This document shows, piece by piece, positions 24,677 to 37,410 of a stretch of DNA of 41,409 nucleotides. Each line of letters opens with the position of its first letter. Position 1 is the first letter of the stretch. A program made the position numbers and the translations under genes. Under the pieces are notes generated by a model. It did not search any database and was not told where the DNA came from. It worked only from the letters and a program-made list of their open reading frames with translations. Source of the DNA: Escherichia coli (lineage in GTDB: Bacteria > Pseudomonadota > Gammaproteobacteria > Enterobacterales > Enterobacteriaceae); NCBI RefSeq assembly GCF_003334765.1, contig NZ_QOWT01000034.1. One strand, written 5' to 3'.

Positions 24677-25096
24677 TTATCTCTCAAGTTCGTTCAGTGC
24701 ATTTTTGACACGCTCTCTTAAACCGGCTTTCTCTTCGCTTTCTTCCACAGTATTTTCTTCGTCTTCAGAAGAAGAGGGGGCATTCTCAACCGCGACGCCT
24801 GGGTCATCTTCCTCCTCGACGGATTCGACGACGGGGAGTGGCTGTTTTTTGAAGAAATAGTGTTGTGTTGATTGTTTAAAAGCGGGCGTTTCAGCCTCTA
24901 CAGTGACTTCGGCTTTTACTATCCAAAGCACCCATAGCTGCCTGGCATACCCACCAACCAGCACCATTCCTGCAAACCACAGGCAAATCAGTAATAAACA
25001 AATTACATATATTATGGTGCTGTGTTTTTGTCGGGAGAAGATACCAGGGTGACCTGTTTCTTTCTGCTCACGCGCGGCGATATAGAATTCAAACAT
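24677..25096 (-). CDS. gspB: GspB, type II secretion accessory protein (139 aa, single TM, acidic C-terminal region)
   Basis: ORF 24677..25096 minus; hydrophobic segment IIYVICLLLICLWFAGMVLVGG and Glu/Asp-rich tail; adjacent downstream of gspA. Confidence 0.8.
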   Translation of the reverse strand: MFEFYIAAREQKETGHPGIFSRQKHSTIIYVICLLLICLWFAGMVLVGGYARQLWVLWIVKAEVTVEAETPAFKQSTQHYFFKKQPLPVVESVEEEDDPGVAVENAPSSSEDEENTVEESEEKAGLRERVKNALNELER

Positions 25097-25097
25097 G

Positions 25098-26567
25098 TCA
25101 TTTCCCCTTCACTGTTGTTTCCGGGGAAATATTTGCTTCATCCCGATATAAGTAGGCACTCTCCCCTGCCACCTGCCAGAGATGTACTAACGTTGAAAAG
25201 CCAACAACACCGTCAGTTTTCAAGTGGTGGCTTTTTTGAAATTGCTTTATTTTTTCTACCAACAAGGGACGCCACTCCGCCGAAGGTTCTGTCGAAATAT
25301 GCAATGCGCGGTTTAACATCGTTTCCAGCCAGAGAATCTCTTCCTCGCTGCTATCACGCGTAATGGTACTCTCCCCTTCCGGCGACATTTTCCACAACAG
25401 AAGATAATCACCCGTCCATACCGACTCAAACCATTTATGTGTCAGCGTCCACGTTTGCTGACCTACGAGGACATCAACGCTAGCCTCACCGACGCGAACG
25501 ACCACAACAGGCAATTTTTTGTCCCCGACTTTAAGCGATGCGATCCAGGGCAAATTCTGATCTACCAATGTTTGTAAAGAAGCATTCCCACTTTTACATG
25601 CCAGCCCCGCTCTTACTGCCTGATCGCACCAGGCCGAATCAGCTGGGACCTCGTACCCCCATACGCCGTATAACACGCTTAGCGCCTCACTATCGCGCAT
25701 CACCACATGAGCAATATCCTTAGTCATATCTTGTTTAACTACTGGCGTTACGGGTATCAGCCACGCAGGAACGGGTAACGTAGCTGTAAAAGAGGACAGC
25801 AGTAGCCAACCACAGGTAAGAGCGATAATGGTTCCACTCATCACCACGGCAAGCTGCATTTTCCGGGGGCGGTTATCACCCAATATGCGGTAAATCATTC
25901 GCCATTGTTTTGCTGTGAAAACGCTGGTCTGCTCGGCTTGCTGTAATAAGCGAATTGTTTCGCCGGCAAGCGCCAGCTTTCTGCGATCGCCCCGACATAA
26001 TAAAGCTATCCGTTTCAGAACTCTGGCGGTTAAAAGGAGATCGGGTTGGTCAATATTCTGACCTTCAAGGATGCTTGCCTTAAGTTCGTGCTCCGTCAGA
26101 CGTCCTATCGAGACAAGTTCAATGCCCTGTTTTTTAAAATCACGTTCGACTTTTCGATCGGGTCTGCCGATCAGCAAAAATTGACCGTCAGGAATAAGAG
26201 ATATTGCGCGTTGGAGATCATCAAGTATGCGGCGGTGATTCAGGTGAGCATTTTCAATAATAATAAGAGGGCAGCGACTATCAGTTCGATGAAGCGCATG
26301 CAGTAATTGCCCCGCCATCTCATCTCGCGTCCAGGCGCTGTCACGGCAGCCCTGTTCAGCCGCGTTATCGTCGGTAACGATCCATGCGGCCTTACCTTGC
26401 CAGGAAACAACGAGGCTTAAAGTAATCACACGGCGATGTTTATCTTTTTGCAGTTGCTGCGCCAGCCAGGTTTTTCCACTTCCAGCCTCACCCAACAAAT
26501 AGCATAGACGCCAGGTTTGACGTTTCTCACACAACCAGGAAAGAATAACTTCTCTTCTCGTAGACAT
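25098..26567 (-). CDS. gspA: GspA, type II secretion ExeA-like ATPase (489 aa)
   Basis: ORF 25098..26567 minus; Walker A GEAGSGKT near the N-terminus, central TM segment, C-terminal periplasmic domain; SD AGGAAG upstream. Confidence 0.85.
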   Translation of the reverse strand: MSTRREVILSWLCEKRQTWRLCYLLGEAGSGKTWLAQQLQKDKHRRVITLSLVVSWQGKAAWIVTDDNAAEQGCRDSAWTRDEMAGQLLHALHRTDSRCPLIIIENAHLNHRRILDDLQRAISLIPDGQFLLIGRPDRKVERDFKKQGIELVSIGRLTEHELKASILEGQNIDQPDLLLTARVLKRIALLCRGDRRKLALAGETIRLLQQAEQTSVFTAKQWRMIYRILGDNRPRKMQLAVVMSGTIIALTCGWLLLSSFTATLPVPAWLIPVTPVVKQDMTKDIAHVVMRDSEALSVLYGVWGYEVPADSAWCDQAVRAGLACKSGNASLQTLVDQNLPWIASLKVGDKKLPVVVVRVGEASVDVLVGQQTWTLTHKWFESVWTGDYLLLWKMSPEGESTITRDSSEEEILWLETMLNRALHISTEPSAEWRPLLVEKIKQFQKSHHLKTDGVVGFSTLVHLWQVAGESAYLYRDEANISPETTVKGK

Positions 26568-26746
26568 AGAACTTCCTGTTTTAATTATTGATTATCCTTA
26601 ATCATAAAAATAATGTATGTATTTATTAATTAAATACATATTACTAATATAAATAAATTTTGCTTGATTCATGCAAGCGGCATTAATACTATTTATACTA
26701 ACGTCAATATACAACCCACCCAATCTATTTTATTAGAACATACATC
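26568..26746. promoter_or_regulatory. AT-rich divergent control region between gspA and gspC (H-NS-silenced promoter region candidate)
   Basis: 179-bp intergenic region, visibly about three-quarters A+T, with a 10-bp perfect inverted repeat TATGTATTTA/TAAATACATA (26616-26640). Confidence 0.5.
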
Positions 26747-27562
26747 GTGCCCACACTACGTTTCCCCTTCCATCTGGCGAATCATAATAAAGATGCTGCC
26801 ATCAATATATTGATTATATTTATAAGCATAGGGTCGATTATTTTTAATGTGAATTATTTCCATACAACTATAGTTAAAAATGGACAGATCATTAATCAAC
26901 CAACAAACGCATTTCAGTCTGATTTCAGCCTTGCCGCTTTATGGCGTAACGAAAATCATGCTGGGGTAAAAGATGCAAATCCCGTGGCAGTTAATCAGGA
27001 AACACCTAAGCTCTCTATAGCGCTTAATGGCATTGTACTCACATCGAATGATGAGACTTCTTTTGTCTTAATTAATGAGGGGAGCGAACAAAAGCGATAC
27101 TCCCTCAACGAAGCCCTTGAGTCAGCGCCGGGAACGTTTATTAGAAAAATAAATAAAACCAGCGTTGTGTTTGAAACTCACGGGCATTACGAAAAAGTAA
27201 CTCTCCATCCAGGGCTACCTGACATCATCAAGCAGCCTGATTCAGAAAGTCAAAATGTACTCGCTGATTATATTATCGCCACGCCTATACGTGATGGAGA
27301 ACAGATATACGGGCTTCGATTGAACCCTCGTAAGGGCCTCAATGCATTTACCACCAGCTTGCTACAACCAGGGGATATCGCCCTCAGGATCAATAATCTT
27401 TCGCTGACCCACCCTGATGAGGTTTCACAGGCATTAAGTTTACTGCTAACTCAACAAAGTGCTCAGTTTACAATTCGTCGCAACGGCGTACCCCGCTTGA
27501 TAAATGTTTCCGTCGGGGAACTTACAGGAATGAATGGACTGCGTCATGAAAGGACTCAATAA
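26747..27562 (+). CDS. gspC: Type II secretion protein GspC (271 aa)
   Basis: ORF 26747..27562; N-terminal TM segment [15 protein letters not shown]; first gene of the gspC-O array. Confidence 0.85.
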
Positions 27563-36254: not shown

Positions 36255-36712
36255 TTAAATCATGGTGGGCAGAAAAATCCACATCGGAAAAACAGATCGT
36301 TGCGGCACTGGCGGTTCTCTCGCTCGGCGTTTTTTGTTGGCTTGGGGTGATAAAACCGATAGATACCTACATTGCAGAGCATCAGTCCCACGCGCAAAAA
36401 ATTAAGAAGGACATCAAATGGATGCAGGATCAAGCGAGCACCCATGGTTTACTCGGTCATCCTGCGCTTACGCAGCCCATCAAAAATATCCTTCTCGAGG
36501 AAGCAAAACGTGAGAATTTGGCTATCACGCTGGAAAACGGCCCGGACAATACTCTGACAATTCATCCTGTCACAGCTCCCCTCGAAAACGTCTCCCGCTG
36601 GCTCACTACGGCACAGGTAACATACGGTATTGTTATTGAAGACCTTCAGTTTACTCTTGCCGGAAACGAAGAGATCACCCTCAGGCATTTGTCCTTCAGG
36701 GAGCAACAATAA
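36251..36712 (+). CDS. gspM: Type II secretion protein GspM (153 aa)
   Basis: ORF 36227..36712; start placed at ATG 36251 (MIKSWWAEKSTSEKQIVAALAVL) overlapping the gspL stop (ATGA). Confidence 0.85.
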   Translation: MIKSWWAEKSTSEKQIVAALAVLSLGVFCWLGVIKPIDTYIAEHQSHAQKIKKDIKWMQDQASTHGLLGHPALTQPIKNILLEEAKRENLAITLENGPDNTLTIHPVTAPLENVSRWLTTAQVTYGIVIEDLQFTLAGNEEITLRHLSFREQQ

Positions 36713-37389
36713 TGACAATGCTACTGCCGCTCTTCATTCTGGTTGGTTTTATTGCAGGTTATTTTGTTAATGCCATCGCCTATCACCTCTCGCCGTTGGA
36801 GGATAAAACGGCGTTAACGTTTCGCCAGGTATTGGTTCATTTCAGGCAAAAAAAATATGCCTGGCATGATACAGTGCCCCTGATACTTTGTGTTGCTGCT
36901 GCTATCGCCTGCGCCCTGGCACCTTTCACGCCCATCGTGACTGGCGCACTCTTTCTCTATTTCTGTTTCGTACTCACGCTCAGTGTTATTGATTTTCGCA
37001 CTCAGCTCCTGCCCGACAAACTCACCTTACCGCTGCTCTGGCTTGGCTTGGTATTTAATGCGCAGTATGGATTAATTGATTTACATGATGCGGTTTACGG
37101 CGCGGTAGCGGGCTATGGGGTGCTGTGGTGTGTTTACTGGGGCGTCTGGTTAGTTTGTCACAAAGAGGGATTGGGCTACGGTGATTTCAAGCTACTGGCC
37201 GCTGCAGGCGCATGGTGTGGCTGGCAAACGTTGCCAATGATACTGCTGATTGCCTCGCTGGGTGGCATTGGTTACGCCATCGTTTCACAACTTCTGCAAC
37301 GCCGGACTATAACCACTATCGCATTCGGCCCGTGGCTTGCGCTCGGCAGCATGATAAACCTGGGGTATCTGGCCTGGATCTCTTATTAA
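36712..37389 (+). CDS. gspO: Prepilin peptidase / N-methyltransferase GspO (225 aa)
   Basis: ORF 36712..37389; polytopic membrane protein with GYGDFKLLAAAGAWCGW active-site region. Confidence 0.9.
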   Translation: MTMLLPLFILVGFIAGYFVNAIAYHLSPLEDKTALTFRQVLVHFRQKKYAWHDTVPLILCVAAAIACALAPFTPIVTGALFLYFCFVLTLSVIDFRTQLLPDKLTLPLLWLGLVFNAQYGLIDLHDAVYGAVAGYGVLWCVYWGVWLVCHKEGLGYGDFKLLAAAGAWCGWQTLPMILLIASLGGIGYAIVSQLLQRRTITTIAFGPWLALGSMINLGYLAWISY

Positions 37390-37390
37390 C

Positions 37391-37410
37391 CGGGAGGGTT
37401 CTCCCTCCCG
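37391..37410. terminator. Convergent-gene hairpin between gspO and bfr
   Basis: CGGGAGGG-ttct-CCCTCCCG perfect 8-bp GC stem immediately after the gspO stop and 8 nt after the bfr stop. Confidence 0.6.

Follow-up and report, generated by a model that had tools for sequence, protein, structure and literature searches.

Is a complete secretion gene cluster that stays silent in the laboratory a maintained part of the chromosome, a decaying relic or a mobile insertion, and how far does the variable DNA around it extend? This question is raised by a locus for a type II secretion system (T2SS), gspAB-gspCDEFGHIJKLMO, which lies beside the S10 ribosomal protein operon in a stretch of 41,409 nucleotides from Escherichia coli (contig NZ_QOWT01000034.1), here called the window. 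By its sequence, the segment 24677-37389 is almost certainly E. coli's chromosomal T2SS-alpha (Gsp) locus and is nearly identical to b3322-b3335 of K-12 MG1655. This finding is already known, and nothing contradicts the identification. The explanation that best accounts for the data as a whole, to which we assign a probability of about 0.95, joins the T2SS-alpha identity with a model of H-NS silencing and ChiA export and with an old block replacement as the likeliest cause of the two alternating haplotypes.

Identity and integrity of the gsp locus

All 14 gsp open reading frames (ORFs) are intact. According to both the ORF listing and direct translation, each has a length that is a multiple of 3 and one terminal stop codon. 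gspB and gspA are on the minus strand, and gspC-D-E-F-G-H-I-J-K-L-M-O run divergently from them on the plus strand (24677-37389; Table 1). The RefSeq gene coordinates agree, with an identical sequence and K-12 MG1655 both annotated with the same genes. An earlier note on the window had placed an intact gspAB divergent from gspCDEFGHIJKLMO next to the S10 operon, and this description holds; it had also allowed that disrupted frames might have been missed by eye, and we found none among the 14 ORFs. Of its span, 24677-37410, the start is right, being the gspB stop codon, while the end overshoots by 21 nt the gspO stop, which ends at 37389. The S10 operon adjoins directly: only 32 nt separate the gspB stop from the S10 promoter at its −35 hexamer, and no clear terminator is seen within them.

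A megablast search of 5426 complete E. coli genomes returned many chromosomes with 100% identity over 24000-41409. MG1655 differs from the window by 4 mismatches in 22,241 bases; therefore, the source of the window is a close K-12 relative and not MG1655 itself. Only 1 of these mismatches is inside the 12.7-kb gsp locus, at position 36758 in codon 16 of gspO, which is GGT (Gly) here and GAT (Asp) in MG1655. Otherwise, the K-12 locus has the same gene order, gene lengths and neighbors, with rpsJ on one side and bfr-bfd-chiA-tufA on the other. The comparison of the Gsp translations with protein families and K-12, which the earlier note had proposed as a check, thus gave T2SS family matches and a single nucleotide difference from b3322-b3335. 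Its view of the locus as the well-described cryptic system of K-12 is borne out by the MG1655 identity, the family models and the literature on H-NS and chitinase. The K-12 T2SS-alpha was reportedly described by Francetic & Pugsley 1996 and Francetic et al. 2000.

GspO residue 16 is also Gly in all other E. coli strains examined and in E. ruysiae, and the Asp of MG1655 puts a charged residue into the first transmembrane segment. In Bfr, the window has Asn at residue 118 (37543), where all other sequences checked have Asp.

Components and gene junctions

The proteins were assigned with NCBIfam equivalog models at their curated cutoffs, and with Pfam for GspA, GspM, GspO and ChiA (Table 1). GspB, C, D, E, F, G, H, I, K and L pass the equivalog cutoffs. 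GspJ is the reference protein of K-12, yet it misses the curated TIGR01711 cutoff of 64.85 by 1.6 bits; Pfam T2SSJ is recorded on GspJ orthologues. The best match of GspD is PDB 5WQ7 (1356 bits over residues 24-650), which is the same protein. GspE carries a Walker A motif, GPTGSGKS, at residue 249 and a tetracysteine motif, CPQC at 382 and CPHC at 415. GspA has ATPase and peptidoglycan-binding domains and is followed immediately downstream by gspB, as in an ExeAB-type secretin-assembly pair. The prepilin leader G↓F/M-TLLE is present in GspG-J, and GspK has G↓VALL, the usual variant without Glu. In an alignment of GspO, the catalytic Asp motifs D94/D102 and GYGD158 are invariant, and a 31-aa internal gap relative to a 254-aa relative with A24_N_bact removes the Cys-rich N-terminal domain (CxxC...CxxC). 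The locus therefore contains the parts that define a T2SS: the secretin, GspE, the platform proteins GspC/F/L/M, the pseudopilins GspG and H/I/J/K (GspJ marginally) and an A24 peptidase. Neither a pilotin gene nor gspN is annotated or was identified in the gsp locus.

The genes are tightly packed. Four-nucleotide ATGA overlaps, which the earlier note had claimed for four junctions, occur at gspE/F, gspH/I and gspL/M. The fourth, gspJ/K, does overlap, but by 8 nt (ATGAATAA) and not in the ATGA manner. Three further overlaps had been missed: gspI/J by 8 nt (ATGATTAA), gspC/D by 17 nt, taking the annotated gspD start at 27546, and gspM/O by 1 nt (TAATG). gspA and gspB are spaced by 1 nt, and the other junctions have gaps of 7-14 nt. 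The overlapping arrangement suggests that translation of these genes may be coupled.

Table 1. Coordinates of the gsp locus, its control regions and the linked features in the window
Feature	Position	Strand	Description
S10 (rpsJ) operon promoter	24617..24644	-	−10 TATAAT 24617-24622, 16-nt spacer, −35 TTGCGT 24639-24644
Variable long haplotype block	24624..41261		16.6 kb: gspBA, gspC-O, bfr, bfd, chiA
gspB	24677..25096	-	139 aa; NCBIfam NF007250 287 bits, cutoff 180; RefSeq
gspA	25098..26567	-	489 aa; Pfam AAA_22 (ATPase), GspA_C39-like, PG_binding_1 (peptidoglycan-binding)
Divergent gspA/gspC control region	26568..26746		179 bp, 22.9% GC; one 50-nt window 10% GC
gspC	26747..27562	+	271 aa, GTG start; TIGR01713 293.6 bits, cutoff 101.6
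gspD secretin, GspD-alpha	27546..29498	+	650 aa; TIGR02517 649 bits, cutoff 351
gspE ATPase	29508..30989	+	493 aa; TIGR02533 656.8 bits, cutoff 630.25
gspF inner-membrane platform protein	30986..32182	+	398 aa; TIGR02120 548.7 bits
gspG major pseudopilin	32192..32629	+	145 aa; TIGR01710 184 bits; leader ...QRG↓FTLLE
gspH minor pseudopilin	32637..33146	+	169 aa; TIGR01708 170 bits
gspI minor pseudopilin	33143..33520	+	125 aa; TIGR01707 132.8 bits
gspJ minor pseudopilin	33513..34100	+	195 aa; TIGR01711 63.2 bits; RefSeq gspJ
gspK minor pseudopilin	34093..35076	+	327 aa; NF037980 251 bits
gspL	35091..36254	+	387 aa; TIGR01709 148 bits
gspM	36251..36712	+	153 aa; Pfam T2SSM, E = 5.8e-38
gspO prepilin peptidase	36712..37389	+	225 aa; Pfam Peptidase_A24 only, E = 3.6e-30
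bfr, long-haplotype allele	37418..37894	-	divergent from O157 allele
bfd, long-haplotype allele	37966..38160	-	divergent from O157 allele
chiA chitinase	38329..41022	-	897 aa, intact; Pfam Glyco_hydro_18 (GH18) and CBM_5_12
AT-rich chiA upstream region	41023..41261		41023-41313 is 29.9% GC
tufA (str operon) terminator hairpin	41263..41290	-	12-bp stem, terminator-like site; right boundary

Silencing and proposed mechanism

Published work that quotes Francetic et al. 2000, PMC3032704 included, describes the K-12 cluster as unexpressed in standard conditions; without H-NS it is de-repressed and secretes chitinase. The chiA product is a known substrate of T2SS-alpha (PMC3032704, among others). 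The literature therefore supports the earlier claim that H-NS keeps the locus silent in K-12 in the laboratory. GspD-alpha is described as a Klebsiella-type secretin whose passage through peptidoglycan may depend on GspAB. The K-12-like system also occurs in uropathogenic strains, and T2SS-alpha has been linked to kidney colonization in uropathogenic E. coli and to fitness in the mammary gland.

The base composition is consistent with H-NS silencing, with 22.9% GC in the gspA/gspC region and 29.9% GC upstream of chiA. Given this AT-richness and the literature, H-NS would be expected to bind at 26568-26746, and for the source strain itself we infer both silencing and secretion. Upstream of chiA, 5 promoter-like sites are found, compared with 1.2 in shuffled sequences. 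Activation by insertion sequence (IS) elements, as in the bgl operon, was considered and rejected: in the three strains examined, the elements interrupt gspA, gspM or gspL and not the control region.

From established T2SS biology and papers on the K-12 gsp locus, the system may work as follows. Two divergent operons, gspAB and gspC-O, would start from the 179-bp, 23%-GC control region, and H-NS would silence both, together with the linked chiA, under laboratory conditions. Upon de-repression, GspO would cleave the G↓F/M/V-TLLE leaders of the pseudopilins GspG-K. The GspE ATPase, seated on the GspF/L/M/C platform, would power a GspG pseudopilus, and the pseudopilus would expel folded periplasmic ChiA through the 15-mer GspD-alpha secretin. 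GspA and GspB, with their ATPase and peptidoglycan-binding domain, would help the secretin across the cell wall.

Comparison with the Klebsiella Pul and Dickeya Out systems shows a common component set (C-M and O), a Klebsiella-type secretin and scaffolding proteins of the GspB/OutB type. Unlike Pul and Out, the E. coli locus has no pilotin (PulS/OutS) gene and no GspN, but has GspA; its GspO lacks the Cys-rich N-terminal domain, and its substrate is a chitinase instead of pullulanase or pectinases. A paralogous second Gsp machine, T2SS-beta, exists in the same species (yghJ/sslE-pppA-yghG-gspC-M beta; enterotoxigenic E. coli (ETEC), enteropathogenic E. coli (EPEC), strains W and B). It differs in its chromosomal site, in its Vibrio-type secretin with a cap gate and in its dependence on the pilotin AspS/GspS-beta. 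T2SS-beta is expressed and secretes heat-labile toxin (LT) and SslE, and no part of it lies inside the window.

Extent of the variable block and two haplotypes

The unit that varies in E. coli is larger than the gsp genes. E. coli O157:H7 is 100% identical to the window up to 24623 and again from 41262, and has only 1.5 kb in between. The order there is rpsJ, a gene for a 155-aa prepilin peptidase, bfr, bfd and tuf; gspA-M and chiA are absent. Compared with the window, this peptidase gene is unrelated in DNA and bfr-bfd are 77-78% identical. The short-type peptidase has 41% protein identity to GspO with no DNA similarity. Bfr differs at 20 of 158 residues (13%) with a synonymous distance (dS) of ~1.5, while the dS of flanking genes is 0.049; Bfd differs at 8 of 64 residues, and its synonymous sites are saturated.

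The gsp locus was found in 3119 of the 5426 genomes, and the others match only the first 184 bases of the query (the rpsJ leader). The short haplotype is present in 2252 (~41%), at 95-100% identity, long-type bfr-bfd in about 3156, and chiA in 3163, in agreement with the gsp count. These counts fit a clean two-haplotype system. The same linkage block is seen independently in a mastitis pan-genome study, in which bfr, bfd, all gsp genes and chiA are listed at identical frequencies. Therefore, the earlier description of gsp as the only accessory-like block in the window is right as to its accessory nature and too narrow in extent, which is about 24624-41261: chiA is absent along with gsp, and bfr-bfd are deeply divergent alleles. 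bfr and bfd are usually treated as core genes, and exist here as two alleles that follow perfectly whether gsp and chiA are present.

The block ends at two regulatory sites. The left boundary falls within the spacer of the S10 promoter, just upstream of the −10 box. Direct alignment shows both hexamers conserved in the two haplotypes, and the spacer and upstream DNA unrelated. We take this site to be the S10 promoter from its match to consensus and the known leader length of ~170 nt. On the right, the tufA terminator is common to both haplotypes, and divergence begins immediately beyond the foot of the hairpin.

The short arrangement, rpsJ-hopD-bfr-bfd-tufA, is that of Salmonella, many Enterobacteriaceae and O157:H7/phylogroup B1. 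It occupies the same chromosomal site with the same flanks, and its peptidase gene has the position and orientation of gspO, convergent with bfr. It differs in the absence of gspA-M and chiA, in its 155-aa peptidase and in bfr-bfd, which are 22% divergent in DNA. The hopD-type peptidase lacks the first ~90 residues of GspO, comprising the first transmembrane segments and the Cys-rich domain, and keeps both catalytic Asp motifs. Such 155-aa peptidases are conserved between bfr and rpsJ in Salmonella, Citrobacter, Enterobacter, Lelliottia, Raoultella and E. coli O157, and 515 database proteins match at E <= 1e-20. No T2SS is encoded beside the hopD-type gene.

Outgroups and the bfr-bfd tree

The site was examined in species-representative genomes by a scan with Bfr followed by tblastn. 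Representatives of E. coli, Salmonella, E. albertii and E. fergusonii were not among its matches; the contexts in Salmonella and E. ruysiae come from protein look-ups. The earlier note had predicted that in Salmonella rpsJ lies near bfr without gsp, and this proved correct: the layout is rpsJ, hopD (155 aa), bfr, bfd and tuf, with only the peptidase gene between rpsJ and bfr. The bfr-rpsJ gap is empty in Xenorhabdus, Proteus, Erwinia and some others. Several Citrobacter, Enterobacter and Kluyvera species, Pluralibacter, Raoultella and others have a hopD-type peptidase gene there. In Yokenella, Chimaeribacter, C. braakii, Trabulsiella, Kosakonia oryziphila and the metagenome-assembled genome UBA5654, the site holds a complete gsp cluster, which is often accompanied by chiA between tuf and bfd. 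Within Escherichia, the long haplotype is found in E. ruysiae (88.8% nucleotide identity over 16.3 kb), a hopD-type gene in E. fergusonii, and E. coli has both haplotypes. On the E. ruysiae contig, the tuf gene beside chiA is followed by coaA-, birA- and murB-like genes, the neighbors of tufB and not tufA. This points either to a tufA/tufB inversion or to an assembly that was joined across the two tuf copies.

Short-type bfr-bfd share 84.7% identity with Salmonella and 85-86% with Citrobacter (~96% protein identity), which is the ordinary between-genus level. Long-type bfr-bfd have at most 82% DNA and 90% protein identity to anything sampled outside Escherichia. A neighbor-joining tree of bfr-bfd was built from codon positions 1+2 of 222 codons with 200 bootstraps, leaving out E. 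albertii and E. marmotae. In 96% of the bootstraps, the long type groups with UBA5654 and the ERR3904647 assembly, both of which carry gsp and chiA at the same site. It never groups with the short type of E. coli, which is placed with Citrobacter and Salmonella. In its flanks, UBA5654 is no closer to E. coli than Salmonella is: its fusA-tuf share 93.5% identity with E. coli, and those of Salmonella 95.0%.

Weighing the explanations

Several points weigh against the joint explanation. In three other E. coli strains IS1 interrupts gspA, IS100 gspM and IS2 gspL, and gspO is frameshifted in strain Ec394; the locus is thus inactivated sporadically in nature, and the system is dispensable in some lineages. 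Because the Cys-rich N-terminal domain that typical prepilin peptidases possess is missing from GspO, the pseudopilins may be cleaved without N-methylation. A consensus promoter scan of the gspA/gspC region found hexamers no more common than in shuffled sequence, and therefore we claim no promoter positions there. Finally, the direction of the replacement is based on 222 codons and a neighbor-joining tree.

The insertions of IS1, IS2 and IS100 in individual strains and the Ec394 frameshift, along with the published laboratory silence and the 41% of E. coli genomes without gsp, would also fit a decaying relic that is intact here by chance or recency, with selection gone. This reading is very improbable in the light of Nei-Gojobori distances between the window and Ec394-330266, a strain of the 97%-identity class. 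Pooled over 13 comparable gsp genes, dS is 0.092 and the ratio of nonsynonymous to synonymous distance (dN/dS) is 0.113; over 15 flanking housekeeping genes (yrdA to yhdN), the values are 0.100 and 0.074. The pooled ratio indicates purifying selection on the cluster and agrees with the earlier claim that its coding capacity is preserved. Since the gsp dS is close to that of the flanking genes, the cluster dates back as far between these lineages as the core genome does. The relic reading is also at odds with the intact 14-gene layout kept in E. ruysiae at its 88.8% identity, and with the published links to kidney colonization and mammary-gland fitness. Even less credible is a recently acquired mobile genomic island, in which gsp-less strains would be ancestral empty sites or simple deletions. 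Presence and absence are polymorphic within E. coli, and the E. coli W genome paper (PMC3032704), which writes of 'a gspO-rpsJ deletion', reads the absence from phylogroup B1 as a deletion. However, no integrase, transposase, tRNA or flanking repeats are annotated, the composition is normal (48.8% GC in the block and 49.9% in the rest of the window), the gsp divergence between phylogroups equals that of core genes, and the block ends in a promoter spacer and at a terminator foot, so a mobile island was rejected. Simple deletion was likewise rejected, on the divergence of bfr, bfd and the peptidase gene: the 'empty' strains differ throughout, with saturated dS in bfr-bfd, a peptidase far from GspO and no chiA, and their short layout is that of Salmonella and Citrobacter.

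A more serious, though still doubtful, alternative reverses the direction: the long haplotype would be ancestral, and some E. coli lineages would have received the short one from a Citrobacter- or Salmonella-like donor. E. ruysiae and the E. coli of the 97%-identity class, which includes strains from human urine and bloodstream, do carry the long type at core-like divergence, and short-type bfr-bfd nest among Citrobacter and Salmonella in the tree. However, identities of 84.7% and 85-86% to these genera leave no close donor. In addition, the short copies differ by ~3% within E. coli and therefore are old there, E. fergusonii also has the hopD-type gene, and the long bfr-bfd group with UBA5654 and ERR3904647, whose flanks are not close to Escherichia. 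The most economical interpretation is that the 16.6-kb block has an ancestry different from its flanks and entered an Escherichia ancestor by homologous replacement, with the native short version still segregating. An old homologous replacement, by way of the ultra-conserved S10-promoter/leader and tufA flanks, is the likeliest reason why the two haplotypes alternate in E. coli. We consider it somewhat better than an even chance that gsp is no indel but one arm of an ancient two-haplotype system, in which a xenologous block related to that of Superficieibacter-like Enterobacteriaceae replaced the native hopD-bfr-bfd and both versions persist across Escherichia, with the long type in E. ruysiae, the short type in E. 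fergusonii and the two together in E. coli.

Other features of the window

In chiA, off-diagonal, mutually shifted blastn matches between orthologues at ~39800-40950 suggest internally repeated modules, which are probably tandem CBM5/12 chitin-binding domains. The length of ChiA varies by lineage (893, 897 or 900 aa). An Rfam scan of the whole window found Alpha_RBS (RF00140; 13608-13719, minus strand, 102.7 bits), upstream of rpsM, as the sole family, with none in the gsp block and none at the S10 leader.

Discussion

The K-12 T2SS-alpha, whose secretin structures have been solved, is a textbook example of a cryptic secretion system, and finding it in the window adds nothing new in itself. 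What is new is the true extent of the block, its two-haplotype structure with xenologous bfr-bfd, the boundary sites and the truncated forms of the prepilin peptidase. These points are of modest interest for the population genomics of E. coli and leave the classification of the locus unchanged.

The unit of variation is gsp together with bfr, bfd and chiA, and not gsp alone. A gsp-negative E. coli carries a Salmonella-like haplotype, with iron-storage alleles that are 13% divergent in protein and with a different S10 promoter spacer. In a genome-wide association study (PMC11390585), bfr and bfd appear beside gsp and chiA among the fitness-associated accessory genes. The association of bfr and bfd there is probably due to linkage, with hitchhiking alleles, and not to an effect of iron storage. 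If the two-haplotype reading is true, bfr and bfd that are flagged as 'accessory fitness genes' in pan-genome studies would be hitchhiking alleles of this block.

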